From Escherichia coli (GTDB lineage Bacteria; Pseudomonadota; Gammaproteobacteria; Enterobacterales; Enterobacteriaceae), in the NCBI RefSeq assembly GCF_016903815.1, contig NZ_CP069973.1: a stretch of 64,000 nt of DNA; one strand, 5' to 3'. Made by a program: the position numbers and the translations under genes. How positions within the stretch are numbered: the first letter of the stretch is position 1; each line of letters opens with the position of its first letter. Positions 1 through 31,700 of the stretch are shown piece by piece. The notes beneath the pieces were generated by a model. The model saw only the letters and a list, made by a program, of their open reading frames with translations. It was not told where the DNA came from and ran no database searches.

Positions 1-450
1 CGCCGGTTCGTTAAATGCAATATGACCGTCGTTACCTACACCGCCCATAAACAGATGAATTTTTCCGTAAGAACGGATTTTTTCTTCATACTGGCGGCAC
101 TCGGCGTCGATATCCGGGGCGTTGCCGTTGAGAAGGTTGATGTTTTCTGCTGGAATATCAACGTGATCGAAGAAATTACGGTGCATAAAGCTGTAGTAGC
201 TTTCCGGATGCTCTTTCGGCAGACCGACATATTCGTCCATGTTGAAGGTGACAACGTGCTTAAAGCTGACCTGGCCTGCTTTATGCATTTCGACTAACGC
301 TTTATAGGTGGTCATCGGCGTGCCGCCAGTCGGCAGGCCCAGAACAAACGGACGATCGGCAGTCGGTTTGAACGCATTGATACGATTGACGATATGGCGA
401 GCAGCCCATTTGCCGACCTGTTCAGCGGTAGTCAGGGGGATCAGTCTCAT
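1..450 (-). CDS. nagB: glucosamine-6-phosphate deaminase NagB, N-terminal part; the 3' end lies beyond the window start
   Basis: Reverse-strand translation from the ATG (plus-strand CAT at 448-450) gives [29 protein letters not shown]..., matching NagB from memory; divergent from nagE as in E. coli. Confidence 0.9.
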
Positions 451-607
451 TATTCACCTCAATAAGTAAAATGTAAGCCGTTGGCGGATTAGGCATCTTT
501 AAGCGTAACCTGGATTTGCGCAGACAGGCGTCAATCCGACCTGATTTTTTGAATGATAAAATAAGTTTTCTGGTTTAGCCAGTAAAAGGGAGTGATGATA
601 ACGATAT

Positions 608-625
608 TTGGTGACAAAACTCACA
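608..625. promoter_or_regulatory. CRP-like site (GTGA-N6-TCACA) in the nagB-nagE divergent promoter region
   Basis: Sequence ttggtgacaaaactcaca read directly; close to the TGTGA-N6-TCACA consensus; the nag divergent region is known to be CRP/NagC controlled. Confidence 0.45.
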
Positions 626-782
626 AAAGACACGCGTTTAATTTGCGATACGAATTAAATTTTCACACACTCTGTAGCAGATGATCTAACAATCTGATTA
701 CAGAACATCGGCAGTACAATTTGCAGCAAAATAAAAATACGGCTTTAAACGAGCCAAATAGGGTTCTCGTAGGGGGAATAAG

Positions 783-2729
783 ATGAATATTTTAGGTTTT
801 TTCCAGCGACTCGGTAGGGCGTTACAGCTCCCTATCGCGGTGCTGCCGGTGGCGGCGCTGTTGCTGCGATTCGGTCAGCCAGATTTACTTAACGTTGCGT
901 TTATTGCCCAGGCGGGCGGTGCGATTTTTGATAACCTCGCATTAATCTTCGCCATCGGCGTGGCATCCAGCTGGTCGAAAGACAGCGCAGGTGCGGCGGC
1001 ACTGGCGGGTGCGGTAGGTTACTTTGTGTTAACCAAAGCGATGGTGACCATCAACCCGGAAATTAACATGGGTGTACTGGCGGGTATCATTACCGGTCTG
1101 GTCGGTGGTGCAGCCTATAACCGTTGGTCCGATATTAAACTGCCGGACTTCCTGAGCTTCTTCGGCGGCAAACGCTTTGTGCCGATCGCCACCGGCTTCT
1201 TCTGTCTGGTGCTGGCGGCCATTTTTGGTTACGTCTGGCCGCCGGTACAGCACGCTATCCATGCAGGCGGCGAGTGGATCGTTTCTGCGGGCGCGCTGGG
1301 TTCCGGTATCTTTGGTTTCATCAACCGTCTGCTGATCCCAACCGGTCTGCATCAGGTGCTGAACACCATCGCCTGGTTCCAGATTGGTGAATTCACCAAC
1401 GCGGCGGGAACGGTTTTCCACGGTGATATCAACCGCTTCTATGCCGGTGACGGCACCGCGGGGATGTTCATGTCCGGCTTCTTCCCGATTATGATGTTCG
1501 GTCTGCCAGGTGCGGCGCTGGCGATGTACTTCGCAGCACCGAAAGAGCGTCGTCCGATGGTTGGCGGGATGCTGCTTTCTGTTGCTGTTACTGCGTTCCT
1601 GACCGGTGTGACTGAGCCGCTGGAATTCCTGTTCATGTTCCTTGCGCCGCTGCTGTACCTCCTGCACGCACTGCTGACCGGTATCAGCCTGTTTGTGGCA
1701 ACGCTGCTGGGTATCCACGCGGGCTTCTCCTTCTCTGCGGGGGCTATCGACTACGCGTTGATGTATAACCTGCCGGCCGCCAGCCAGAACGTCTGGATGC
1801 TGCTGGTGATGGGTGTTGTCTTCTTCGCTATCTACTTCGTGGTGTTCAGTTTGGTTATCCGCATGTTCAACCTGAAAACGCCGGGTCGTGAAGATAAAGA
1901 AGATGAGATCGTTACTGAAGAAGCCAACAGCAACACTGAAGAAGGCCTCAATCAACTGGCGACCAACTATATTGCTGCGGTTGGCGGCACTGACAACCTG
2001 AAAGCAATTGACGCCTGTATTACTCGTCTGCGCCTGACCGTGGTTGACTCGGCTCGCGTCAACGATGCGATGTGTAAACGGCTGGGTGCTTCTGGGGTAG
2101 TGAAACTGAACAAACAGACTATTCAGGTGATTGTTGGCGCGAAAGCGGAATCCATTGGCGATGCAATGAAGAAAGTTGTTGCCCGTGGTCCGGTAGCCGC
2201 TGCGTCAGCTGAAACTGCGCCTGCAACTGCCGCGCCTGTAGCAAAACCGCAGGCTATACCAAACGCGGTGTCTGTCGCGGAGCTGGTATCGCCGATTACC
2301 GGTGATGTTGTGGCACTGGATCAGGTTCCTGACGAAGCATTCGCCAGCAAAGCGGTGGGTGACGGTGTGGCGGTGAAACCGACAGATAAAATCGTCGTAT
2401 CACCAGCCGCAGGGACAATCGTGAAAATCTTCAACACCAACCACGCGTTCTGTCTGGAAACCGAAAAAGGCGCGGAGATCGTCGTCCATATGGGTATCGA
2501 CACCGTAGCGCTGGAAGGTAAAGGCTTTAAACGTCTGGTGGAAGAGGGCGCGCAAGTAAGCGCAGGGCAACCGATTCTGGAAATGGATCTGGATTACCTG
2601 AACGCTAACGCCCGTTCGATGATTAGCCCGGTGGTTTGCAGCAATATCGACGATTTCAGCGGCTTGATCATTAAAGCTCAGGGCCATGTTGTGGCGGGTC
2701 AAACACCGCTGTATGAAATCAAAAAGTAA
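783..2729 (+). CDS. nagE: PTS N-acetylglucosamine-specific EIICBA component
   Basis: 648 aa ORF; membrane EIIC N-terminal half, EIIB Cys motif (DACITRLR) and C-terminal EIIA domain; recognised as NagE. Confidence 0.95.
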   Translation: MNILGFFQRLGRALQLPIAVLPVAALLLRFGQPDLLNVAFIAQAGGAIFDNLALIFAIGVASSWSKDSAGAAALAGAVGYFVLTKAMVTINPEINMGVLAGIITGLVGGAAYNRWSDIKLPDFLSFFGGKRFVPIATGFFCLVLAAIFGYVWPPVQHAIHAGGEWIVSAGALGSGIFGFINRLLIPTGLHQVLNTIAWFQIGEFTNAAGTVFHGDINRFYAGDGTAGMFMSGFFPIMMFGLPGAALAMYFAAPKERRPMVGGMLLSVAVTAFLTGVTEPLEFLFMFLAPLLYLLHALLTGISLFVATLLGIHAGFSFSAGAIDYALMYNLPAASQNVWMLLVMGVVFFAIYFVVFSLVIRMFNLKTPGREDKEDEIVTEEANSNTEEGLNQLATNYIAAVGGTDNLKAIDACITRLRLTVVDSARVNDAMCKRLGASGVVKLNKQTIQVIVGAKAESIGDAMKKVVARGPVAAASAETAPATAAPVAKPQAIPNAVSVAELVSPITGDVVALDQVPDEAFASKAVGDGVAVKPTDKIVVSPAAGTIVKIFNTNHAFCLETEKGAEIVVHMGIDTVALEGKGFKRLVEEGAQVSAGQPILEMDLDYLNANARSMISPVVCSNIDDFSGLIIKAQGHVVAGQTPLYEIKK

Positions 2730-2743
2730 TCTGCTTTATACCT

Positions 2744-2767
2744 GATGCGACACGGCAGCGTCGCATC
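2744..2767. repeat. REP-like palindromic hairpin immediately downstream of nagE
   Basis: gatgcgacacggcagcgtcgcatc forms an inverted repeat directly after the nagE stop codon. Confidence 0.4.
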
Positions 2768-2789
2768 CAACAATGACAAGCGGTGGAGA

Positions 2790-3520
2790 TCTTCTCTGCC
2801 GCTTTTTTTGTGCACAGAAAACCCCCAGCTAGGCTGGGGGTTCCGGAAAGCTTTCAGCTTTAAGCCAGTTATTAAAACCCCTTTTGATTTGTTAAAACAC
2901 CTTGCGGTCTGGCAACTGCAAGTGTCAAACAAGAAATCAAAAGGGGGTCCCAATGGGGAACGAAAAGAGCTTAGCGCACACCCGATGGAACTGTAAATAT
3001 CACATAGTTTTTGCGCCAAAATACCGAAGACAGGTGTTCTACAGAGAGAAGCGTAGAGCAATAGGCAGTATTTTGAGAAAGCTGTGTGAGTGGAAAAGTG
3101 TACGGATTCTGGAAGCTGAATGCTGTGCAGATCATATCCATATGCTTGTGGAGATCCCGCCCAAAATGAGCGTATCCGGCTTTATGGGATATCTGAAAGG
3201 GAAAAGCAGTCTGATGCTTTACGAGCAGTTTGGTGATTTGAAATTCAAATACAGGAACAGGGAGTTCTGGTGCAGAGGGTACTACGTCGATACGGTGGGT
3301 AAGAACACGGCGAAGATACAGGATTACATAAAGCACCAGCTTGAAGAGGATAAAATGGGAGAGCAGTTATCGATTCCCTATCCGGGCAGCCCGTTTACGG
3401 GCCGTAAGTAACGAAGTTGGATGCAAATGTCAGATCGTGTGCGCCTGTTAGGGCGCGGCTGGTAAGAGAGCCTTATAGGCGCATTTGAAAAACCTCCGGC
3501 TATGCCGGAGGATATTTATT
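2790..3520 (+). mobile_element. IS200 (IS200/IS605 family) insertion sequence, boundaries approximate
   Basis: Perfect hairpin cccccagctagctggggg (about 2822-2843), a second long stem-loop ccccttttgatt...aatcaaaagggggt spanning the tnpA ribosome-binding site, a 152 aa Y1 transposase and a right-end hairpin (cctccggctatgccggagg); the nagE-glnS spacer is about 0.7 kb longer than I recall for K-12. Confidence 0.85.
2953..3411 (+). CDS. tnpA: IS200 transposase TnpA (HUH/Y1 family)
   Basis: Translation MGNEKSLAHTRWNCKYHIVFAPKYRRQVFY...HIHMLVEIPP... with the HxH (HUH) motif; near-identical to Salmonella IS200 TnpA as I recall it. The ORF-track entry starts upstream at 2902; the ATG at 2953 is the homologous start. 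Confidence 0.9.
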   Translation: MGNEKSLAHTRWNCKYHIVFAPKYRRQVFYREKRRAIGSILRKLCEWKSVRILEAECCADHIHMLVEIPPKMSVSGFMGYLKGKSSLMLYEQFGDLKFKYRNREFWCRGYYVDTVGKNTAKIQDYIKHQLEEDKMGEQLSIPYPGSPFTGRK

Positions 3521-3643
3521 TTTCATCAATCATCCCCATAATCTCAGTGAGATTTTCGATTTTCACTAACTAACAGTTGTCAGCCTGTCCCGCTTATAAG
3601 ATCATACGCCGTTATACGTTGTTTACGCTTTGAGGAATCCACG

Positions 3644-5308
3644 ATGAGTGAGGCAGAAGCCCGCCCGACTAACTTTATTCGTCAGATCATCGATGAAGAT
3701 CTGGCCAGTGGTAAGCACACCACAGTACACACCCGTTTCCCGCCGGAGCCGAATGGCTATCTGCATATTGGCCATGCGAAATCTATCTGCCTGAACTTCG
3801 GGATCGCCCAGGACTATAAAGGCCAGTGCAACCTGCGTTTCGACGACACTAACCCGGTAAAAGAAGATATCGAGTATGTTGAGTCGATCAAAAACGACGT
3901 AGAGTGGTTAGGTTTTCACTGGTCTGGTAACGTCCGTTACTCCTCCGATTATTTTGATCAGCTCCACGCCTATGCGATCGAACTGATCAATAAAGGCCTG
4001 GCGTACGTTGATGAACTGACACCGGAACAGATCCGCGAATACCGCGGCACCCTGACGCAGCCGGGTAAAAACAGCCCGTACCGCGACCGCAGCGTTGAAG
4101 AGAACCTGGCGCTGTTCGAAAAAATGCGTACCGGTGGTTTTGAAGAAGGTAAAGCCTGCCTGCGTGCGAAAATCGACATGGCGTCGCCATTTATCGTAAT
4201 GCGCGATCCGGTGCTGTACCGCATTAAATTTGCTGAACACCACCAGACTGGCAACAAGTGGTGCATCTACCCGATGTACGACTTCACCCATTGCATCAGC
4301 GATGCGCTGGAAGGTATTACGCACTCTCTGTGTACGCTTGAGTTCCAGGACAACCGTCGCCTGTACGACTGGGTGCTGGACAACATCACCATTCCTGTTC
4401 ACCCGCGCCAGTACGAATTCTCGCGCCTGAATCTGGAATACACTGTGATGTCCAAGCGTAAGCTGAACCTGCTGGTGACCGACAAGCACGTTGAAGGCTG
4501 GGATGACCCGCGTATGCCGACCATTTCCGGTCTGCGTCGTCGTGGTTACACTGCGGCTTCTATTCGTGAGTTCTGCAAACGCATCGGTGTGACCAAGCAG
4601 GACAACACCATTGAGATGGCGTCACTGGAATCCTGCATCCGTGAAGATCTCAACGAAAATGCGCCGCGCGCAATGGCGGTTATCGATCCGGTGAAACTGG
4701 TTATCGAAAACTACCATGGCGAAGGCGAAATGGTCACCATGCCGAACCATCCGAACAAACCGGAAATGGGGAGCCGTCAGGTGCCGTTTAGCGGTGAGAT
4801 TTGGATCGATCGCGCCGATTTCCGCGAAGAAGCTAACAAGCAGTACAAACGTCTGGTGCTGGGTAAAGAAGTGCGTCTGCGTAATGCTTACGTCATTAAG
4901 GCTGAACGCGTGGAGAAAGATGCCGAAGGCAATATCACCACCATCTTCTGTACTTATGACGCCGACACCTTAAGCAAAGATCCGGCAGATGGTCGTAAAG
5001 TCAAAGGTGTTATTCACTGGGTGAGCGCGGCACATGCGCTGCCGGTTGAAATCCGCCTGTACGATCGTCTGTTCAGCGTGCCGAACCCAGGTGCTGCGGA
5101 TGATTTCCTGTCGGTGATTAACCCGGAATCGCTGGTGATCAAACAGGGCTTTGCTGAACCGTCTCTGAAAGACGCGGTTGCGGGTAAAGCATTCCAGTTT
5201 GAACGTGAAGGTTATTTCTGCCTCGACAGCCGCCATTCCACTGCCGAAAAACCGGTATTTAACCGCACCGTAGGGCTGCGTGATACCTGGGCGAAAGTAG
5301 GCGAGTAG
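3644..5308 (+). CDS. glnS: glutaminyl-tRNA synthetase
   Basis: 554 aa; class I HIGH motif (LHIGHAKS) and VMSKR (KMSKS-type) motif present in the translation. Confidence 0.95.
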
Positions 5309-5755: not shown

Positions 5756-7162
5756 ATGCGTACGTTTAGTGGCAAACGTAGTACGCTGGCGCTGGCTATC
5801 GCCGGTGTTACAGCAATGTCGGGCTTTATGGCAATGCCGGAGGCTCGCGCCGAAGGATTTATCGACGATTCAACCTTAACCGGCGGTATCTATTACTGGC
5901 AGCGTGAACGCGACCGTAAAGATGTTACCGACGGCGACAAATACAAAACCAACCTTTCTCACTCCACCTGGAACGCCAACCTCGATTTTCAGTCTGGTTA
6001 TGCTGCTGATATGTTCGGCCTTGATATTGCTGCGTTTACGGCGATTGAAATGGCGGAAAACGGTGACAGCTCTCACCCGAACGAAATCGCGTTTTCAAAA
6101 AGCAATAAAGCCTATGACGAAGACTGGTCCGGCGACAAAAGCGGTATAAGCCTGTATAAAGCAGCGGCCAAATTTAAATACGGTCCGGTGTGGGCGAGGG
6201 CAGGTTACATTCAGCCAACTGGTCAGACGCTGTTAGCGCCGCACTGGAGCTTTATGCCGGGTACTTATCAGGGGGCGGAAGCCGGGGCGAATTTTGATTA
6301 CGGCGATGCTGGTGCGTTGAGTTTCTCCTACATGTGGACCAACGAATACAAAGCACCGTGGCATCTGGAAATGGATGAGTTTTATCAGAACGATAAAACC
6401 ACCAAAGTTGATTATCTTCACTCCATCGGTGCGAAATACGACTTCAAAAATAACTTCGTACTGGAAGCGGCATTTGGTCAGGCGGAAGGGTATATCGATC
6501 AATATTTTGCCAAAGCCAGCTACAAATTTGATATCGCCGGTAGCCCGTTAACCACCAGTTACCAGTTCTATGGTACGCGCGATAAAGTTGACGATCGCAG
6601 CGTCAACGATCTTTATGACGGCACCGCCTGGCTGCAAGCGTTGACCTTTGGTTACCGGGCGGCTGACGTAGTGGATTTGCGCCTCGAAGGCACCTGGGTT
6701 AAGGCTGACGGTCAGCAGGGATACTTCCTGCAACGTATGACTCCAACCTACGCTTCCTCCAACGGCCGCCTGGATATCTGGTGGGATAACCGTTCCGACT
6801 TCAACGCTAACGGCGAAAAAGCGGTCTTCTTCGGTGCGATGTATGACCTGAAAAACTGGAATCTTCCAGGCTTCGCCATCGGCGCTTCCTACGTTTACGC
6901 ATGGGATGCTAAACCCGCTACCTGGCAGAGCAATCCGGATGCGTACTACGACAAGAACCGGACTATTGAAGAGTCTGCATATAGCCTGGATGCGGTTTAC
7001 ACCATTCAGGACGGCCGCGCCAAAGGCACGATGTTCAAACTGCACTTCACCGAATACGACAACCACTCCGACATCCCAAGCTGGGGCGGTGGTTACGGCA
7101 ACATCTTCCAGGATGAGCGTGACGTGAAATTTATGGTAATCGCACCATTCACCATCTTCTGA
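5756..7162 (+). CDS. chiP: chitoporin (OprD-family outer membrane porin) ChiP/YbfM
   Basis: 468 aa with signal peptide and C-terminal aromatic residue typical of a beta-barrel porin; SD agagga upstream; recognised as ChiP. Confidence 0.9.
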
Positions 7163-7211
7163 TGCCCGACGCGGCAGGTTTTGTGCCTGCCGCACGTTTG
7201 AGGAATTTGCT

Positions 7212-7538
7212 ATGAAAAAACTGATTCTCATCGCCATGATGGCATCGGGGCTGGTGGCTTGTGCGCAATCAACCGCGCCACAGGAAGACAGCCGTCTGAA
7301 AGAGGCATACAGCGCCTGTATCAACACCGCACAAGGTTCGCCAGAAAAAATTGAAGCCTGCCAGAGCGTGTTAAACGTGCTGAAGAAAGAGAAACAACAT
7401 CAGCAGTTTGCCGACCAGGAAAGTGTACGCGTACTGGATTATCAGCAGTGTCTGCGCGCAACGCAAACCGGAAATGATCAGGCGGTAAAAGCCGACTGTG
7501 ATAAGGTCTGGCAGGAAATTCGCAGTAATAACAAATAA
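7212..7538 (+). CDS. chiQ: lipoprotein ChiQ/YbfN
   Basis: 108 aa with lipobox (LVAC); immediately downstream of chiP as in E. coli. Confidence 0.85.
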   Translation: MKKLILIAMMASGLVACAQSTAPQEDSRLKEAYSACINTAQGSPEKIEACQSVLNVLKKEKQHQQFADQESVRVLDYQQCLRATQTGNDQAVKADCDKVWQEIRSNNK

Positions 7539-7577
7539 GTGAGAGCTGTAACTCTCGCTTTTCTTATTTCCCGTGTA

Positions 7578-7610
7578 TAAAAAAGCCAACCCGCAGGTTG
7601 GCTTTTCTCG
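7578..7610. terminator. bidirectional Rho-independent terminator between chiQ and fur
   Basis: Hairpin agccaacccgcaggttggct flanked by an A-run and a T-run. Confidence 0.7.
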
Positions 7611-7621
7611 TTCCGGCTGGC

Positions 7622-8068
7622 TTATTTGCCTTCGTGCGCGTGCTCATCTTCGCGGCAATCGCCTTCGGCACAGTGACCGTAAAGATAGAGACTGTGGTTA
7701 GTCAGGCGAATGCCATGTTTTGCGGCAATTTCACGCTGACGCGCTTCGATGGAATCATCACTAAATTCGATTACCTTGCCGCAGTCGAGGCAGATCAGGT
7801 GATCGTGGTGATGTTGCTGTGTCAGTTCAAATACGGATTTACCGCCTTCAAAATTGTGGCGGGTGACGATACCAGCGTCGTCAAACTGGTTCAGTACGCG
7901 ATATACCGTAGCCAGACCAATTTCTTCACCCATATCGATCAGACGTTTGTATAAATCTTCCGCACTGACGTGATGGTTGTCCGGCTCCTGAAGAACTTCC
8001 AGGATTTTTAAACGAGGAAGCGTTACTTTCAGGCCAGCTTTCTTTAGGGCGGTATTGTTATCAGTCAT
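7622..8068 (-). CDS. fur: ferric uptake regulator Fur
   Basis: 148 aa MTDNNTALKKAGLKVTLPRLKILEVLQEP...; metal-binding HHDH and Cys motifs; recognised as Fur. Confidence 0.95.
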   Translation of the reverse strand: MTDNNTALKKAGLKVTLPRLKILEVLQEPDNHHVSAEDLYKRLIDMGEEIGLATVYRVLNQFDDAGIVTRHNFEGGKSVFELTQQHHHDHLICLDCGKVIEFSDDSIEARQREIAAKHGIRLTNHSLYLYGHCAEGDCREDEHAHEGK

Positions 8069-8147
8069 GCGGAATCTGTCCTGTTACTAAGCGGTTCACT
8101 TCATTAGGAGAAGTGACAGAATTTGCTCTTGAGATAATGCGTATCAT
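8061..8147 (-). CDS. uof: uof, 28-codon upstream ORF translationally coupled to fur
   Basis: Direct translation of the reverse strand gives MIRIISRANSVTSPNEVNRLVTGQIPHD, with the TGA overlapping the fur ATG (ATGACTGA). Too short for the ORF track, which shows it only as the tail of a longer reading frame. Confidence 0.75.
   Translation of the reverse strand: MIRIISRANSVTSPNEVNRLVTGQIPHD
8123..8140. promoter_or_regulatory. Fur-box-like operator (fur autoregulation)
   Basis: gataatgcgtatcattat matches about 15 of 19 positions of the Fur-box consensus GATAATGATAATCATTATC; it overlaps the uof start. Confidence 0.55.
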
Positions 8148-8325
8148 TATAGAATTGCCACGCCTAAATGAAAACCACAAGTCCCTGGCAAATATTGTTA
8201 ATAAAAACGTGGCACAGCTTACATTTACAACGGCAAGGCCACTTGAACACCGGGACATTGTACAGGTACAACAGCAAAAGTTACAAATTTGTAGCAATTA
8301 TTTTGATTGGCATTATCTATTAATA

Positions 8326-8349
8326 CGGCGTAGACATGAGTCTACGCCG
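8326..8349 (-). terminator. hairpin downstream of fldA (partial terminator before uof-fur)
   Basis: cggcgtagacatgagtctacgccg, a perfect 10 bp stem. Confidence 0.45.
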
Positions 8350-8356
8350 CATCACA

Positions 8357-8887
8357 TCAGGCATTGAGAATTTCGTCGAGATGCAACTCTTCAGAAATCT
8401 GTTTAACCCATTTTTCTACACGTTCAGCGGTCAGTTCCGGCTGACGGTCTTCGTCGATAGCCAGACCGACAAAGTGGTCGTCATCTGCCAGACCTTTTGA
8501 TGCTTCGAAATGATAGCCCGCAGTTGGCCAGTGACCAACAATGGTTGCACCGCGCGGTTCAATGATGTCGCGGATGGTGCCCAATGCGTCACAGAAGTAT
8601 TCAGCGTAATCTTCCTGGTCACCACAACCAAACAGCGCAACCAGTTTGCCATTGAAATCAATCTCTTCGAGAGTCGGAAAGAAGTCATCCCAGTCACACT
8701 GCGCTTCGCCGTAATACCAGGTTGGGATGCCCAGCAGCAGAATGTCATATGCTTCCAGATCTTCTTTGCTGCTTTTTGCAATGTCATGGACATCGGCAAC
8801 GTCTTTACCAAGCTGTTTTTGAATCATTTTTGCGATATTTTCGGTATTACCGGTGTCGCTGCCGAAAAAGATGCCAGTGATAGCCAT
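8357..8887 (-). CDS. fldA: flavodoxin 1
   Basis: 176 aa [23 protein letters not shown]... with the flavodoxin FMN-binding signature. The ORF-track entry extends upstream to 9004; I place the start at the homologous ATG. Confidence 0.95.
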
Positions 8888-9026
8888 GAGTGAAATAACC
8901 TCTTGAAACTTATTGAAATGGGGGTGGAAAATTGCCCACGGATAAAGGCAATCATAGCAGAACAGGCAGTCTTGCGGAATCAGCAAACGAGCAGGACTGC
9001 ACACTGTGCTACATGAAAGTGGAAAT

Positions 9027-9320
9027 TTAAACGATGCCCTGACTACGCAGCGCCGCCAGTTGCTGCATTAACATCTCTTCGATCAGTTCGCTACGGCTCA
9101 TATTGCGCGATTCCGCCAGCTCGTTCAGCGCCTCGACAGCTTCCGCGTTCAGCTTCAGTTCGACACGCTTAAGGCCACGTACTTTATCGCGTTTTAGCTG
9201 GTTGCGTTTATTAATACGCAGCTGTTCATCGCGCGAAAGCGGATTAGTTTTCGGTCGTCCCGGTCGACGCTCGTGCGCGAACAGATCTAATGTCGTACGG
9301 TCCGTTTGTTCTTTGGCCAT
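9027..9320 (-). CDS. ybfE: LexA-regulated protein YbfE (CopB-like)
   Basis: 97 aa [38 protein letters not shown]...; the open frame continues upstream to 9389, so the start is uncertain. Confidence 0.8.
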
Positions 9321-9459
9321 GATCTTGGTGACTTCGGGGGAAACAATCAGCCAGGCCTCTGCCCGGATGGATAGCGCGCCATAATACATCAGCGCGATGA
9401 GTCACGCCAACGCCCACGCGCGGAAAGCGACGCGGACGCTGGGTTTTTAATCAGTTGCG

Positions 9460-10224
9460 TTAATCATTGAGATAGCGACGGATAGCGCGTAATACCGCAT
9501 CCGGTTTTTCAGCATGGACCCAGTGACCCGCGCCTGCAATCACATGCGCCCGTGCCTGTGGAAATTGTGCCAGTAAATCATCGCGGTACTGCTCGCTAAC
9601 ATACGGAGAATTGCCGCCAGGGATAAACAGGGCAGGGTGATCCCATGCCGGGATTTTCTCCCAACCCACAATATGCGGATACTGATCCCACAATACCGGC
9701 ACGTTAAAGCGCCACTCCCCGTCAACAAAAGATTTCAGCAGAAACTGAATCACCCCTTCTTCATTAAGATGCTGGCGCATTATTGCCGCTGCTTGCTGGC
9801 GAGTTTGTGCGTCCGATTCACTGACTGCGTTGATGGCCGCGAAAATCTCATCATGCCGGCGAACGTGATAATCGACCGGAGCAATATCAATTGCCACCAG
9901 CTTGTCAATCCGATCGGGGGCCAGTGCAGTAAGTGCCATTACCGCTTTACCGCCCATGGAGTGACCGATAAATGTTGCTTTGTCGATCTGCAGTGCATCC
10001 AGGGTATCAACAAGATCCTGGGCCATCGCCGGGTAATTCATTACCGGATCTCTCGGTGAAAGACCGTGGTTACGCATATCAACCTGGATGATATTGTGAT
10101 CGTTTACCAGATCGCGAGCCAGTACGCCAAGGTTGTCTAGGCTACCAAACAGACCATGGACAAGAACGATGGGAGAATTATTGTGCTGGTTTTGTGCAGT
10201 TTGCGCGCGGATATTCAATTTCAT
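9460..10224 (-). CDS. ybfF: esterase YbfF (alpha/beta hydrolase)
   Basis: 254 aa; GHSMGG nucleophile-elbow motif in the translation. Confidence 0.9.
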   Translation of the reverse strand: MKLNIRAQTAQNQHNNSPIVLVHGLFGSLDNLGVLARDLVNDHNIIQVDMRNHGLSPRDPVMNYPAMAQDLVDTLDALQIDKATFIGHSMGGKAVMALTALAPDRIDKLVAIDIAPVDYHVRRHDEIFAAINAVSESDAQTRQQAAAIMRQHLNEEGVIQFLLKSFVDGEWRFNVPVLWDQYPHIVGWEKIPAWDHPALFIPGGNSPYVSEQYRDDLLAQFPQARAHVIAGAGHWVHAEKPDAVLRAIRRYLND

Positions 10225-10408
10225 GGCAAAGTTCTTTTTTTCGCGTTGTCGGGTTAGGGTATTATGTTGACCATTGTGCCACAGGGCTGCAACAAATAAG
10301 GTTTATTCCGAGTTTTTCTGCAAGCCAGGCTTGACGCTATCCGCTGCCGGGATTTATTCATATACTCCTGGCGACTTGTATTCAGCTAAGACACTGCACT
10401 GGATTAAG

Positions 10409-10954
10409 ATGAAAACGATTGAAGTTGATGATGAACTCTACAGCTATATTGCCAGCCACACTAAGCATATCGGCGAGAGCGCATCCGACATTTTACGGCG
10501 TATGTTGAAATTTTCCGCCGCATCACAGCCTGCTGCTCCGGTGACGAAAGAGGTTCGCGTTGCGTCACCTGCTATCGTCGAAGCGAAGCCGGTCAAAACG
10601 ATTAAAGACAAGGTTCGCGCAATGCGTGAACTTCTGCTTTCGGATGAATACGCAGAGCAAAAGCGAGCGGTCAATCGCTTTATGCTGCTGTTGTCTACAC
10701 TATATTCTCTTGACGCCCAGGCGTTTGCCGAAGCAACGGAATCGTTGCACGGTCGTACACGCGTTTACTTTGCGGCAGATGAACAAACGCTGCTGAAAAA
10801 TGGTAATCAGACCAAGCCGAAACATGTGCCAGGCACGCCGTATTGGGTGATCACCAACACCAACACCGGCCGTAAATGCAGCATGATCGAACACATCATG
10901 CAGTCGATGCAATTCCCGGCGGAATTGATTGAGAAGGTTTGCGGAACTATCTAA
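10409..10954 (+). CDS. seqA: replication initiation negative regulator SeqA
   Basis: 181 aa [33 protein letters not shown]...; the ORF-track entry starts upstream at 10274. Confidence 0.95.
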
Positions 10955-25410: not shown

Positions 25411-28400
25411 ATGAGTGGAAAACCGGCGGCGCGTCAGGGCGACATGACGCAGTATGGCGGTAGCATTGTCCAGGGTTCAGCCGGGGTGCGCATCGGTGCC
25501 CCCACCGGCGTGGCCTGTTCGGTGTGCCCCGGCGGGGTGACGTCCGGCCATCCGGTCAATCCGCTGCTCGGCGCGAAGGTCCTTCCCGGAGAAACCGACC
25601 TTGCCCTGCCCGGCCCGCTGCCGTTCATCCTCTCCCGCACCTACAGCAGTTACCGGACAAAAACGCCCGCGCCGGTGGGGAGCCTCGGCCCCGGCTGGAA
25701 AATGCCTGCGGATATCCGCTTACAGCTGCGCGATAACACACTGATACTCAGTGATAACGGCGGCAGAAGCCTGTATTTTGAGCACCTGTTTCCCGGTGAG
25801 GACGGTTACAGCCGCAGCGAGTCACTCTGGCTGGTGCGCGGCGGTGTCCTGAAACTGGATGAAGGTCACCGGCTGGCCGCACTCTGGCAGGCGCTGCCGG
25901 AAGAACTCCGCTTAAGTCCGCATCGTTATCTGGCGACGAACAGTCCGCAGGGGCCGTGGTGGGTACTCGGCTGGTGTGAGCGGGTGCCGGAGGCGGATGA
26001 GGTGCTGCCTGCGCCGCTGCCGCCGTACCGGGTACTGACCGGGCTGGTGGACCGCTTCGGGCGCACACAGACGTTCCACCGTGAGGCTGGCGGCGAAATC
26101 ACCGGCGTGACGGATGGTGCCGGGCGTCACTTCCGGCTGGTACTGACCACGCAGGCGCAGCGGGCAGAAGAAGCCCGGCAGCAGGCCTCTTCCGGCGGGA
26201 CGGAACCGTCCGCTTTTCCTGATACCCTGCCGGGTTACACCGAATATGGCCGGGACAACGGCATCCGTCTGTCTGCCGTGTGGCTGACGCACGACCCGGA
26301 ATACCCGGAGAATTTACCTGCCGCGCCGCTGGTGCGCTATGGCTGGACGCCACGCGGCGAACTGGCGGCGGTGTATGACCGCAGCAATACACAGGTGCGC
26401 AGCTTTACTTACGATGATAAATACCGGGGCCGGATGGTGGCGCACCGTCACACGGGCCGGCCGGAAATCCGTTACCGTTACGACAGCGACGGGCGGGTGA
26501 CAGAACAGCTAAACCCGGCAGGCTTAAGCTACACGTATCAGTATGAGAAAGACCGCATCACCATCACCGACAGTATGGACCGCCGTGAAGTGCTGCACAC
26601 GCAGGGCGAAGGCGGGCTGAAGCGGGTGGTGAAAAAGGAACACGCGGACGGCAGCGTCACGCAGAGTCAGTTTGATGCGGTGGGCAGGCTTAAGGCACAG
26701 ACGGATGCCGCAGGCCGGACGACTGAGTACAGCCCGGATGTGGTGACGGGACTCATCACGCGCATCACCACACCGGATGGCAGGGCATCGGCATTTTACT
26801 ATAACCACCACAACCAGTTAACGTCAGCCACCGGGCCTGACGGGCTGGAAATACGCCGGGAATATGATGAATCCGGCCGTCTGATTCAGGAAACCGCACA
26901 CAACGGCGATATCACCCGCTACCGTTATGATAATCCACACAGTGACTTACCCTGCGCAACGGAAGATGCCACCGGCAGCCGGAAAACCATGACATGGAGC
27001 CGTTACGGTCAGTTGCTGACCGTCACTGACTGTTCCGGTTATGTAACCCGTTATGACCATGACCGTTTTGGTCAGGTGACGGCGGTGCACCGCGAGGAAG
27101 GGCTGAGTCAGTACCGCGCATACGACAGCCGTGGACAGTTAATTGCGGTGAAAGACACGCAGGGCCATGAAACGCGGTATGAATACAACGCCGCCGGTGA
27201 CCTGACCGCCGTCATTGCCCCGGACGGCAGCAGAAACGGGACACAGTACGATGCGTGGGGAAAGGCCATCCGTACCACACAGGGCGGTCTGACGCGCAGT
27301 ATGGAATACGATGCTGCCGGACGGGTCATCCGCCTGACCAGTGAAAACGGCAGCCACACCACCTTCCGTTACGATGTACTCGACCGGCTGATACAGGAAA
27401 CCGGCTTTGACGGCCGCACACAGCGTTATCACCACGACCTGACCGGCAAACTTATCCGCAGCGAGGATGAGGGGCTGGTCACCCACTGGCACTATGACGA
27501 AGCAGACCGCATCACACAGCGAACGGTGAATGGTGAAACCGCAGAACAGTGGCGGTACGACGAACGCGGCTGGCTGACACAAATCAGCCATCTCAGCGAA
27601 GGCCACCGGGTGACGGTGCATTACGGGTATGATGAGAAAGGCCGCCTGACCGGTGAGCGCCAGACGGTGCATCACCCGCAGACGGAAGCACTGCTCTGGC
27701 AGCATGAAACCAGACACGCTTACAACGCGCAGGGACTGGCGAACCGCTGTATACCGGACAGCCTGCCCGCCGTGGAATGGCTGACTTACGGCAGCGGCTG
27801 GCTGGCAGGCATGAAACTCGGCGACACACCGCTGGTGGATTTCACCCGCGACCGCCTGCACCGGGAAACGCTGCGCAGCTTCGGCCGTTATGAACTCACC
27901 ACCGCTTATACCTCTGCCGGGCAGTTACAGAGCCAGCACCTGAACAGCCTGCAGTATGACCGCGATTACACCTGGAACGACAACGGCGAACTCATCCGCA
28001 TCAGCAGCCCGCGCCAGACCCGGAGTTACAGCTACAGCGACACCGGCAGGCTGACCGGCGTCCACACCACGGCAGCGAACCTTGATATCCGCATCCCGTA
28101 TGCCACGGACCCGGCGGGCAACCGCCTGCCCGACCCGGAGCTGCACCCGGACAGCCCCCTCAGCGCATGGCCGGATAACCGTATCGCCCGTGACGCGCAC
28201 TATCTTTACCGGTATGACCGTCACGGCAGGCTGACGGAGAAAACCGACCTCATCCCGGAAGGGGTTATCCGCACGGATGATGAGCGGACTCACCGGTACC
28301 ATTACGACAGCCGGCACCGGCTGGTGCACTACACGCGGACACAATATGCAGAGCCGCTGGTCGAAAGTCGCTATCTTTACGACCTGCTGGGCCGCAGGGT

Positions 28401-29550
28401 GGCAAAACGGGTATGGCGGCGTGAACGGGACCTGACGGGCTGGATGTCGCTGTCATGGAAACCGGAAGTGCCCTGGTACGGCTGGGACGGCGACCGGCTG
28501 ACCACAATACAGAACGACAGAACCCGCATCCAGACGGTTTATCAGCCGGGGAGCTTCACGCCACTCATCAGAGTTGAAACTGCCACCGGTGAGCTGGCGA
28601 AAACGCAGCGCCGCAGCCTGGCGGATGCGCTTCAGCAGTCCGGCGGTGAAGACGGTGGCAGTGTGGTGTTCCCGCCGGTGCTGGTGCAGATGCTCGACCG
28701 GCTGGAAAGTGAAATCCTGGCTGACCGGGTGAGTGAGGAAAGCCGCCGCTGGCTGGCATCGTGCGGCCTGACGGTGGAGCAGATACAAAACCAGATGGAC
28801 CCGGTGTACACGCCGGCGCGAAAAATCCACCTGTACCACTGCGACCATCGCGGCCTGCCGCTGGCGCTTGTCAGCACGGAAGGGGCAACAGAATGGTGCG
28901 CAGAATACGATGAATGGGGCAACCTGCTGAATGAAGAGAACCCGCATCAGCTGCAGCAGCTCATCCGCCTGCCGGGTCAGCAGTATGATGAGGAGTCCGG
29001 CCTGTATTACAACCGCCACCGCTATTATGACCCGCTGAAGGGGCGGTATATCACTCAGGATCCGATTGGACTGAAGGGGGGATGGAATTTTTATCAGTAT
29101 CCGTTAAATCCGATCTCAGAGATAGACCCACAAGGGTTAAATCCGTTAATTCTTAGTGTTGTAGCACTGATGAGTTGCGGTTTGTTTTCATCAGGTGGTG
29201 TTATCCAAAGTGGGCAACAACGCAGAGATCAATATGGCCGTAAAGTTAATCCAGAAGCCGACAAATTAACAGATGAACATAAGTCAGGTGTAAATCCTGG
29301 TGGTAACTGTAGTCCCCAGAACCTGAGTGACTTACAAAATGAAAAAAACAGATTATGTAACCAGTCTAGAGCTTGCGCTCCTCAGATGCTGAGAAAAGAA
29401 ATATTGAGACGGTACGAGATAAATTTGGCGTGCGCTTCGGTCAGAAAGCAGATTAATAATCAGTGCTTTGGTGGTGGAGATAAGGCCCATATGGAAGAAG
29501 AGAATAAAGCATATAAAACAGCAGCTGATTGCAGTGGCTTAATAAAATGA
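25411..29550 (+). CDS. rhsC: Rhs-family polymorphic toxin: YD-repeat shell, PxxxxDPxGL core boundary, variable C-terminal tip
   Basis: 1379 aa; GC-rich YD/RHS repeat core with an N-terminal region close to K-12 RhsC as I recall it; core ends at ...[14 protein letters not shown] (about 29139), followed by a roughly 136 aa AT-rich tip. Confidence 0.9.
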
Positions 29551-30050
29551 AAAAAATAATTTTCTCTAACGAGAGTGCAGTCTATGATGAACTTATGATT
29601 CATTTCCCATGCCAGCCATTACCTCATATTTCAAATGATATTACAGGGCTGGAGGAACTGGATATTGTATATAATTTTTTCCAAAAGAAACAATGGAATG
29701 AAATAGCCAACAATTTTAAAATAAAGGATGACTCTTATGCTTTAGAGTTAGGAATTACATTCCTCCCTGAGAAAGTATTCTGCTATTACATCCCTCTGTA
29801 TATTTATGCCTCGTTGTTTAATAAGAATGATTTTTGGGTTTTTGAATCCGATTTTATTCAACAATATTTATGTCCTGAGTATCGGGATCACGATGATTTT
29901 TTGAATTTTGTTTTTAATTTTTCAGATATACAACTATCTATTATTGCACAGTTTATGTCTTATGAATCAGACGCTGGATTCTTTTATGCAAGTAAAGCTT
30001 GTATGGATTTTTGGGAAGATTATTCACCTCTATTACATAAGAAAATTTAA
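29547..30050 (+). CDS. putative cognate Rhs immunity protein
   Basis: 167 aa ORF ([20 protein letters not shown]...) whose ATG overlaps the rhsC stop (ATGA); AT-rich like the toxin tip; the position and coupling are typical of rhsI genes. An in-frame ATG at 29529 is an alternative start. Confidence 0.6.
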
Positions 30051-30102
30051 TCGTAAAAGGTATAAATGGTTTAATAAAAAACTTGTCTACTCGTTGGAGT
30101 AG

Positions 30103-30720
30103 ATGAAAAATAAGATGACGTTGGCATATAGATCACTGCGAATAATCCACCTCTACCACTGCGACTATCGCGGCCTGCCGCTGACGCTTATCAGCCCTGA
30201 CGGGGCAACAGAATGGTGCGCAGAATATGATGAATGGGGCAACCTGCTGACTGAAGAGAACCCGCAGCACCTGCAGCAGCTTATCCGTCTGCCGGGGCAG
30301 CAGTATGATGAGGAGTCCGGCCTGTATTACAACCGCCACCGCTATTATGACCCGCTGCAGGGGCGGTGTATCACTCAGGATCCGATTGGGCTGGAAGGCG
30401 GGTGGAATCAGTATGTATATGCTTCCATACATCCAACCTATTCTATTGATCCGCTGGGCTTAATTGATAAACCTGCTCCAGTATTCAATCGAGAACTAAA
30501 TTCAGATGCGTATTATCTTGCCGTAAATAATTGCTATTCATATGCTCTAAATAGGTATGGAAATCCTGGGAGTAGGATTTTTGGCGGCGGAGGATTACAA
30601 CCTGGAGAATTATCTGGAAAAGAGTTTTCTAAACTCACTTGTAGTAGTATTTTTGAAGCGTCAAAAAATGATGGTGCCAAGGACAGGGAAAGATCATCAG
30701 AAGTACACTTTTTGTACTAA
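30103..30720 (+). other. orphan Rhs C-terminal tip fragment (core-end homology plus an alternative toxin domain); lacks the Rhs core and a credible start of its own
   Basis: Translation ...[35 protein letters not shown]...[17 protein letters not shown]...IDPLGL then an unrelated 85 aa tail; nucleotides 30141-30408 are about 92% identical to rhsC 28821-29088 by eye. Confidence 0.8.
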
Positions 30721-30759
30721 ATAATTCGCATTTTATGTTTAAAAATTGAGATATTCCTC

Positions 30760-31700
30760 ATTACCTGAAGCTGTTTTTTATTGCTTATACATGATCAAAT
30801 ACTCCTTACATAATTAAGGAGAACAAAATGGAACTTAAAAAATTGATGGAACATATTTCTATTATCCCCGATTACAGACAAGCCTGGAAAGTGGAACATA
30901 AATTGTCGGATATTCTACTGTTGACTATTTGTGCCGTTATTTCTGGTGCAGAAGGCTGGGAAGATATAGAGGATTTTGGGGAAACACATCTCGATTTTTT
31001 GAAGCAATATGGTGATTTTGAAAATGGTATTCCTGTTCACGATACCATTGCCAGAGTTGTATCCTGTATCAGTCCTGCAAAATTTCACGAGTGCTTTATT
31101 AACTGGATGCGTGACTGCCATTCTTCAGATGATAAAGGCGTCATTGCAATTGATGGAAAAACGCTCCGGCACTCTTATGACTAGAGTCGCCGCAGGGGAG
31201 CGATTCATGTCATTAGTTCGTTCTCAACAATGCACAGTCTGGTCATCGGACAGATCAGGACGGATGAGAAATCCAATGAAATTACAGCTATCCCTGAACT
31301 TCTTAACATGTTGGATATTAAAGGAAAAATTATCACAACTGATGCGATGGGTTGCCAGAAAGATATCGCAGAGAAGATACAAAAACAGGGCGGTGATTAT
31401 TTATTCGCTGTAAAAGGAAACCAGGGGCGGCTAAATAAAGCCTTTGAGGAAAAGTTTCCGCTGAAAGAATTAAATAATCCAGAGCATGGCAGTTACGCAA
31501 TGAGTGAAAAGAGTCACGGCAGAGAAGAAATCCGTCTTCACATTGTTTGCGATGTCCCTGATGAACTTATTGATTTCACGTTTGAATGGAAAGGGCAGCC
31601 ATGGACAGAAACTACCTGACGTCAGTCCTTGCGGGGAGCGGGCTTTCGTAATCTTGCCCTGCTACAACAGGATTAACTTCACAAATATCATTTCCCAACG
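30760..31700 (+). mobile_element. H-repeat (ISAs1-family) element remnant, boundaries approximate
   Basis: Encodes an H-repeat-associated transposase-like protein ([57 protein letters not shown]...), as found beside Rhs elements in E. coli. Confidence 0.75.
30828..31619 (+). pseudogene. H-repeat-associated (ISAs1 family) transposase, disrupted
   Basis: Two same-frame ORFs (30828-31184 and 31230-31619) separated by an in-frame TAG at 31182-31184; the 3' part is shortened relative to full-length H-rpt proteins as I recall them, with the conserved C-terminal MDRNYL...SVLAGSGLS segment in a different frame after 31610. Confidence 0.75.

Follow-up and report, generated by a model that had tools for sequence, protein, structure and literature searches.

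The window analyzed here, a stretch of 64,000 nucleotides of Escherichia coli DNA (assembly GCF_016903815.1, contig NZ_CP069973.1), carries an rhs element and, immediately downstream of it on the same strand, a small open reading frame (ORF) whose product (RefSeq accession no. WP_000720081.1) is labelled "hypothetical protein." The gene order, in the annotation of E. coli strain 7/2, is kdpA-kdpF-ybfA-rhs-ORF-orphan rhs fragment-ISAs1 (ybfD) pseudogene-ybgA-phrB-dtpD. As the order kdpA-ybfA-rhsC...ybfD-ybgA-phr is found in both genomes, this synteny identifies the rhs locus of the window as the K-12 rhsC locus. The Rhs protein ends in a tip with an Ntox16 domain, a class of predicted toxins, and the ORF begins within the rhs stop codon (Table 1). 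The genomic evidence, which includes the assignment of the tip to Ntox16, the conserved linkage of tip and ORF, and the replacement of both as a cassette relative to K-12, makes this ORF very probably the gene for the cognate immunity protein (RhsI) of the RhsC tip. Protection against the tip and binding to it are predictions of this reading.

Table 1. Features of the rhsC region, given in positions of the window
Feature	Positions	Strand	Remarks
rhs ORF	25411-29550	+	1,379 amino acids (aa); TGA stop at 29548-29550
RhsC core: N-terminal DUF6531/weak PAAR-like region, YD-repeat shell, RHS core end	25411-29139	+	Pfam DUF6531, RHS_repeat
DPQGL (DPxGL motif closing the conserved Rhs core)	29125-29139	+	K-12 RhsC similarity ends here
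Cassette without K-12 counterpart: tip, ORF, and 87-nucleotide spacer	29131-30137	+	Window versus K-12 locus by blastn; drop in G+C content
RhsC C-terminal predicted toxin tip	29140-29550	+	136 aa plus stop (RhsC residues 1244-1379); basic (isoelectric point [pI] 8.9); 7 Cys; homologs carry PF15523
Hydrophobic transmembrane (TM)-like leader of the tip	29140-29205	+	22 residues, directly after DPQGL; Kyte-Doolittle 19-residue maximum, 1.98
Ntox16 (PF15523) domain	29299-29538	+	Pfam E = 1.5e-12; R102, D114-K-A-H117 (tip numbering)
ATGA stop/start overlap, putative translational coupling site	29547-29550	+	Read from the sequence
Predicted cytoplasmic immunity protein (RhsI), DUF6714 family	29547-30050	+	167 aa; TAA stop at 30048-30050
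Orphan rhs fragment	30103-30720	+	Core-end repeat, 30138-30408, then a different AT-rich tip, 30409-30683; NCBIfam RHS_core, Rhs_assc_core; Pfam RHS

The ORF and the exchanged cassette

The junction of the two frames reads ggcttaataaaATGAaaaaa, with the ATG of the ORF at 29547 to 29549 and the rhs TGA at 29548 to 29550, which gives an overlap of 4 bases; the letters from 29540 to 29555 are taataaaATGAaaaaa. An earlier note on this DNA had described a 167-aa ORF with an ATG that overlaps the rhsC TGA in this way, and our reading of 29547 to 29550 confirms it. A program-made list of ORFs gives the longest possible form, with 173 aa from a TTG at 29529; we take the ATG at 29547 as the start because the RefSeq protein uses the same start and the N termini of the homologs agree with it (MK.I.F). 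The AT-rich composition that the note had ascribed to tip and ORF alike is evident from the G+C content: the Rhs core has 0.616, the tip 0.407, and the ORF, the more AT-rich of the two, 0.304. The encoded protein likewise has the character claimed for it: it is acidic (pI 4.49; 25 D+E versus 12 K+R) and rich in aromatic residues (F/W/Y, 20.4%), and we detected neither a signal peptide nor a TM segment in it (the top 19-residue Kyte-Doolittle mean is 1.16, and the N terminus is not hydrophobic). Compared with the Citrobacter and Enterobacter orthologs, the ratio of nonsynonymous to synonymous substitution rates is 0.10 to 0.18 for the ORF and 0.02 to 0.05 for the tip core, with synonymous sites near saturation; these substitution patterns place the ORF under purifying selection. 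The low ratio, the presence of homologs of 157 to 176 aa across many genera, and the confident structural model described below indicate that the ORF is a real gene rather than a chance reading frame.

The Rhs protein of the window ("RHS element core protein" in RefSeq) is 95% identical to K-12 RhsC across 1,250 aa, through the DPxGL motif, and is unrelated to it beyond the motif. At the nucleotide level, the stretch from 29131 to 30137 is flanked on both sides by sequence common to the K-12 Rhs core ends (blastn). Bracketed by these shared ends, the whole cassette of tip and ORF sits in place of the K-12 tip and ybfB. The earlier note had pictured a swapped toxin-immunity pair in which the ORF holds the position of ybfB and yet differs from it, and both parts of this picture agree with the comparison: the stretch that differs from K-12 consists of exactly the tip and the ORF with its spacer, and YbfB, which occupies the same position in the rhsC locus and likewise begins at the rhsC end, has 108 aa versus 167 for the ORF product and an unrelated sequence (BLASTP E = 32). 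The K-12 RhsC tip, the partner of YbfB, is also unrelated to the tip of the window.

The Ntox16 tip and the DUF6714 family

The Ntox16 domain (PF15523) is present on every tip homolog retrieved. In Zhang et al. (2012; PMC3482391), Ntox16 figures as a predicted toxin of alpha-helical structure with a conserved R and a [DNE]xxH motif that occurs with RHS repeats and with delivery by a type VI secretion system (T6SS) or the Photorhabdus virulence cassette (PVC); they predict that it targets nucleic acid, and their table enters no immunity protein for it. Over 12 diverse tips, residues C57, K69, C79, R102, G112, D114, E120, and C131 (tip numbering) are invariant, with C109 and H117 almost as constant; the conserved residues given by Zhang et al. 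are R and [DNE]xxH only (PMC3482391). The four Cys of the domain (57, 79, 109, and 131) stay invariant or nearly invariant in tips down to about 22% identity, which suggests a metal site or disulfides. In an AlphaFold2 model of the tip fused through a linker to the ORF product, the tip is predicted to contain four helices. A leader comparable to the TM-like one of the window tip is found in most of the paired tips (those of Citrobacter, Salmonella, Enterobacter, Rahnella, Lelliottia, and Methylovulum), although its sequence is poorly conserved; it may help the domain enter the target cell or its membrane.

The ORF product matches the Pfam family DUF6714 (PF20461; E = 3.9e-5; 24.1 bits) over residues 67 to 158, corresponding to model positions 65 to 159 of 161, and a profile built from ORF relatives retrieves about 30 more proteins annotated with PF20461. 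The family is annotated on the Salmonella and Rahnella orthologs and on most of the distant profile matches and has a core motif, F.YY.P.Y, in common with the ORF; the enterobacterial clade is divergent, and many close homologs of the ORF lack a precomputed PF20461 match. The ORF family itself is small, with 17 representatives at E <= 1e-3 among 1.84 billion cluster representatives at 50% identity. DUF6714 was the sole match of the ORF in the Pfam scan, which returned no Imm, SUKH, or SuFu family and none of DUF1795, DUF4123, and DUF2169; scans of the ORF and the tip against NCBIfam, PADLOC, and PHROGs gave nothing useful. Our literature searches for Ntox16/PF15523, DUF6714/PF20461, and WP_000720081 found nothing relevant beyond Zhang et al. 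(2012) and no mention of DUF6714. One sequence listed as a distant homolog with 43% identity (P0026) was discarded, as it proved to be this very E. coli locus in an assembly riddled with frameshifts.

An AlphaFold2 model of the ORF product, obtained with an alignment of 19 sequences, has a predicted local distance difference test score (pLDDT) of 91.8, a predicted template modeling score (pTM) of 0.89, and about 11 helices. The model confidently predicts a compact all-alpha fold resembling ARM/HEAT repeats, a common protein-binding scaffold; such a predicted fold agrees with the role of an inhibitor without proving inhibition. Foldseek searches with this model against AFDB50 recovered uncharacterized bacterial proteins only. 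When profiles of the ORF family and of the tips were run against PDB sequences, no relatives emerged, the matches to ribosomal protein S29 (E of about 1) being due to chance, and a Foldseek search of the PDB with the fused tip-linker-ORF model returned noise.

Conserved linkage and codivergence of tip and ORF

The earlier note had proposed examining the co-occurrence of the tip and the ORF across Rhs loci, and the outcome supports the pairing. We searched the frames upstream of the ORF relatives with a hidden Markov model (HMM) built from six tips and found an Ntox16-like domain whose end coincides with the start of the ORF relative at differing chromosomal sites in at least seven genera, including orphan modules. 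The loci compared (numbered with the prefix L) include Citrobacter (L002 to L005), with the pair at two different chromosomal sites; Salmonella (L007 to L009), where it lies in orphan-type Rhs fragments beside an IS4 element; Enterobacter mori (L010 and L011), between rpsF and the ula operon; Rahnella sikkimica (L012), as an orphan after a full Rhs gene near glgP; Methylovulum (L017 and L018; HMM E = 3e-6 and 4e-7); and Amantichitinum (L019; HMM E = 3e-4), in which Arg replaces the His of the motif. In two further loci (L014 and L015), a frameshifted Ntox16 tip lies upstream of a DUF6714 relative, and in Lelliottia wanjuensis and E. quasimori both proteins are encoded on one contig. The ATGA junction occurs in eight loci, namely, the window, L002, L003, L007, L010, L012, L014, and L019. 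A second, orphan pair in Citrobacter (L003, positions 7285 to 8178) combines a tip 41% identical to that of the window (E = 5e-19) with a following 174-aa ORF that is weakly but specifically similar to the window ORF (E = 2e-4). Similarly, an orphan module of E. cloacae (L022, positions 2488 to 3347) has a tip whose end overlaps by 4 bases the ORF behind it (positions 2871 to 3347); this ORF encodes 158 aa and has 34% identity to the window ORF (E = 2e-23; hhalign probability, 99.8%). The loci with frameshifted tips also have an N-terminal architecture unusual for an Rhs-type toxin, in which Toprim domains fused to an RHS core end precede the tip (L014, positions 2214 to 4014; L015, positions 1334 to 3209).

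Conversely, starting from the toxin, we turned its peptide [ND]-x-L-C-N-Q-S-R-A-C-[AS]-P into a degenerate DNA pattern; all six metagenome contigs recovered, several of which are probably E. coli or Citrobacter and not independent, have the ORF in overlap with the toxin end. Within E. coli, the tip plus ORF and the ORF alone match the same 243 of 5,426 complete genomes, with at least 99% identity and always on the chromosome; these are mostly human isolates. No diverged copy of the ORF was found elsewhere within the 5,426 genomes, and a tblastn search of plasmids and phages with the ORF gave no match. In about 100,000 species-representative genomes, a peptide pattern for the ORF family gave 62 matches, none of them confirmed, and the DNA pattern for the toxin gave none, so that the module is either absent from these genomes or missed by the scans. 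NCBI assemblies of Rahnella sikkimica, Lelliottia wanjuensis, and others contain matching sequences, yet the representative scans were silent, the representatives being other assemblies or the sequences having been missed.

A passenger gene of unrelated function that merely rides along with the AT-rich tip DNA would lead one to expect loss or shuffling of the ORF. Instead, tip and ORF stay linked, and the stop/start overlap is retained, at identities as low as about 20 to 25% and across Proteobacteria of different classes; searches of plasmids and phages found no member of the family, and in E. coli none was seen apart from Rhs elements. DUF6714 carries no assigned function, and a distant member fused to ankyrin repeats lies among metabolic genes with no toxin nearby, both of which would suit a passenger; taken together with the linkage, we regard this explanation as improbable.

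Two kinds of loci in which ORF-type genes and a functional tip part company bear on the nature of the association. In E. coli WP4-W18-ESBL-09 (L021; NZ_AP022069.1, positions 1594 to 3901), an IS21-family element (ISSso4; istA/istB) splits the tip near its 3' end, some 60 bases ahead of the intact ORF; the toxin is thus inactivated and the immunity gene kept. In a Logan contig (SRR18507719; L013, positions 87 to 3111), three tandem DUF6714 paralogs (164, 159, and 167 aa) occur with no Ntox16 domain; a small glycine-rich protein and a membrane protein of 78 aa precede them, and several more small ORFs, some seemingly for membrane proteins or lipoproteins, lie downstream, a layout that resembles a heterogeneous polyimmunity array or island. 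The toxin-less tandem paralogs and the intact ORF after a disrupted toxin fit immunity and not a chaperone, and bear on the possibility that the ORF product is an accessory factor of the toxin (a chaperone, stabilizer, or export adaptor that, for example, shields the hydrophobic leader) rather than its inhibitor. A dedicated chaperone would also be strictly linked to Ntox16 tips, the TM-like leader of most of the compared tips might need shielding, and helical-repeat proteins are generic binders. However, the known T6SS chaperones and adaptors (Eag/DUF1795, DUF4123, and DUF2169) sit upstream and bind N-terminal regions, none of them was matched in the Pfam scan, and orphan tips without a delivery domain still keep the ORF. 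We accordingly give the accessory role only a slim chance. Widespread occurrence of the ORF without the toxin domain, which the earlier note had named as an outcome that would speak against immunity, was not seen for the close family, the toxin-less copies being confined to the tandem array and the ankyrin fusion.

The orphan modules that pair Ntox16 with the ORF in the absence of a delivery domain also bear on a further alternative, that the pair acts mainly inside the cell as a toxin-antitoxin-like module, with internal translation of the tip and control of producer growth, as reported for Salmonella Rhs orphans. Rhs elements are reported to be able to act as type II toxin-antitoxin modules (PMC7043789). 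In the window, by contrast, the tip shares one reading frame with a complete RhsC whose N terminus is DUF6531/PAAR-like, and we hold a mainly intracellular module to be highly unlikely here; even there, the ORF would be the neutralizing partner, with its context changed and its role the same.

In nine toxin/ORF pairs (36 comparisons) the identities of the tip core and of the ORF co-vary with a Spearman coefficient of 0.93, the ORF being on average 12.5 percentage points more diverged than the tip core; faster evolution of the ORF is typical of immunity proteins. A more specific pattern is seen along the tip sequence. Over residues 30 to 116, the E. coli tip has 80 to 85% identity to those of E. 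cloacae, C. rodentium, and a metagenome relative, but it shares with them only 9 of its last 20 residues. For the E. cloacae tip of L022, the value over residues 30 to 116 is 85% with a partner ORF only 34% identical, whereas the Salmonella tip, with 75% identity over the same residues, matches at 18 of the 20 terminal positions and has a partner ORF that is 59% identical. The E. cloacae-type module, judged by its sequence, looks like a second subtype (type B) that reflects a switch of immunity specificity in the C-terminal helix of the toxin; the last 20 residues of the type-B tip are HMSEESEAYGVSAVCSRYASTK. Since the change in these residues tracks the immunity subtype, we infer that the C-terminal helix, right after D-x-x-H, is part of the interface with the immunity protein, a proposal that is based on a single verified type-B pair.

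Beyond the pair, the rhsC element continues with the orphan rhs fragment, which RefSeq lists as a pseudogene ("missing N-terminus"); it belongs to the same Rhs element and lies outside the tip/ORF pair. In its tip, neither Pfam nor NCBIfam gives a match past the RHS core end, and no immunity-like ORF follows the fragment. ISAs1/H-repeat sequence common to K-12 starts at 30684 and so may have truncated the orphan module. The downstream part of the rhsC element differs between strains: the array at the K-12 locus (L016, positions 6721 to 10462) is longer, with ybfO, ybfC, ybfQ, ybfL, and ybfD, and the window has a single short orphan fragment and one degraded ISAs1 copy from 30103 to 31700. A hairpin with a 7-bp stem (tctactc gttg gagtaga) lies at 30086 to 30103, in the spacer that separates the orphan fragment from the ORF; it has a terminator-like score on the minus strand only, and on the plus strand no T-run follows it.

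Proposed mechanism and relation to known immunity systems

The following mechanism would account for these observations. The last 136 residues of RhsC would form an Ntox16-type toxin, enclosed in the YD shell and, as in other Rhs proteins, freed at DPxGL, with DPQGL as its autoproteolytic release site by analogy. In solved Rhs effectors the toxin lies inside the YD shell and release occurs at DPxGL (PMC8636562, PMC8765631). The tip would then be delivered into neighboring cells, probably via a T6SS by the same analogy; the N terminus of RhsC has DUF6531 and a weak PAAR signal. A promoter scan found no sigma-70-like site from 29000 to 29547, which is weak negative evidence, and no Shine-Dalgarno sequence is recognizable upstream of the ATG of the ORF (ggcttaataaa). 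Together with the conserved ATGA, these negatives favor cotranscription of the ORF with rhsC and coupling by termination and reinitiation: ribosomes that end at the rhsC TGA would restart at the overlapping ATG, and we propose that synthesis of the toxin would in this way always be accompanied by synthesis of its immunity protein. The acidic, all-alpha ORF product would stay in the cytoplasm and inhibit the basic toxin domain by 1:1 binding, and the block would protect the producer and its siblings; a cytoplasmic immunity protein in turn argues for a cytoplasmic target of the toxin. Specificity would probably involve the C-terminal helix of the toxin (the last ~20 residues), which changes with the immunity subtype. 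Binding, protection, the route of delivery, and the activity of the toxin are the parts of this scheme that we infer.

Several observations weigh against an assignment as immunity protein. The Pfam match of the ORF to DUF6714 is modest (24 bits, its standing relative to the gathering cutoff not being given). Linked genes co-vary anyway, so that the co-variation of tip and ORF is weak on its own. Many of the loci with both genes come from closely related Enterobacterales and are not fully independent. At the L020 locus, the RHS C terminus upstream of the ORF relative is Ntox16-like by eye only and was not detected by the HMM. The distant 287-aa ankyrin-DUF6714 fusion noted above (L023, positions 4001 to 4864) is encoded among metabolic genes with no toxin nearby and is either an orphan immunity-type protein or another use of the fold. 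The fused tip-linker-ORF model (pLDDT, 66; pTM, 0.62; no predicted aligned error) speaks neither for nor against binding. Finally, as the ORF has no Shine-Dalgarno sequence or internal promoter, its expression rests on the proposed coupling.

We lean toward the broader view that DUF6714 is a dedicated immunity family for Ntox16, an alpha-helical toxin class with conserved Cys4 and K/R/D/H/E residues and a TM-like leader, with specificity set by the last helix. If this is true, the E. coli type and the E. cloacae/C. rodentium type would make up a two-subtype system in which to take apart the specificity code as well as the activity. The new elements are the apparent assignment of DUF6714 as the Ntox16 immunity family and a candidate specificity determinant, the C-terminal helix of the toxin; they provide a testable function for a "hypothetical" protein of 243 complete E. 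coli genomes. The general understanding of Rhs elements is unchanged, the arrangement being standard and in this respect of modest interest: downstream immunity genes and displacement of C-terminal cassettes are textbook features of these elements.

Among Rhs immunity proteins, RhsIA and RhsIB of Dickeya dadantii were reportedly described by Koskiniemi and coworkers in 2013. RhsFI is an E. coli Rhs immunity protein (PMC7618764). The ORF has no sequence relationship to any characterized RhsI, and its Ntox16 partner is a predicted toxin; with RhsIA/RhsIB and RhsFI it has in common that it is a small AT-rich ORF directly downstream of the tip on the same strand, is swapped together with the tip, and occurs in orphan modules. 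At the level of fold, the model of the ORF product is comparable to the alpha-helical repeat domains of the ARM, HEAT, TOG, and VHS types. The ORF matches no Pfam Imm family, and the pairing of Ntox16 with DUF6714 appears to be unrecorded among the immunity families of Zhang et al. (2012; Imm1 to Imm73, Imm-SUKH, and Imm-SuFu; PMC3482391); like those families, it is encoded downstream of the toxin, and polyimmunity arrays and an occasional fusion to ankyrin repeats are features common to both.

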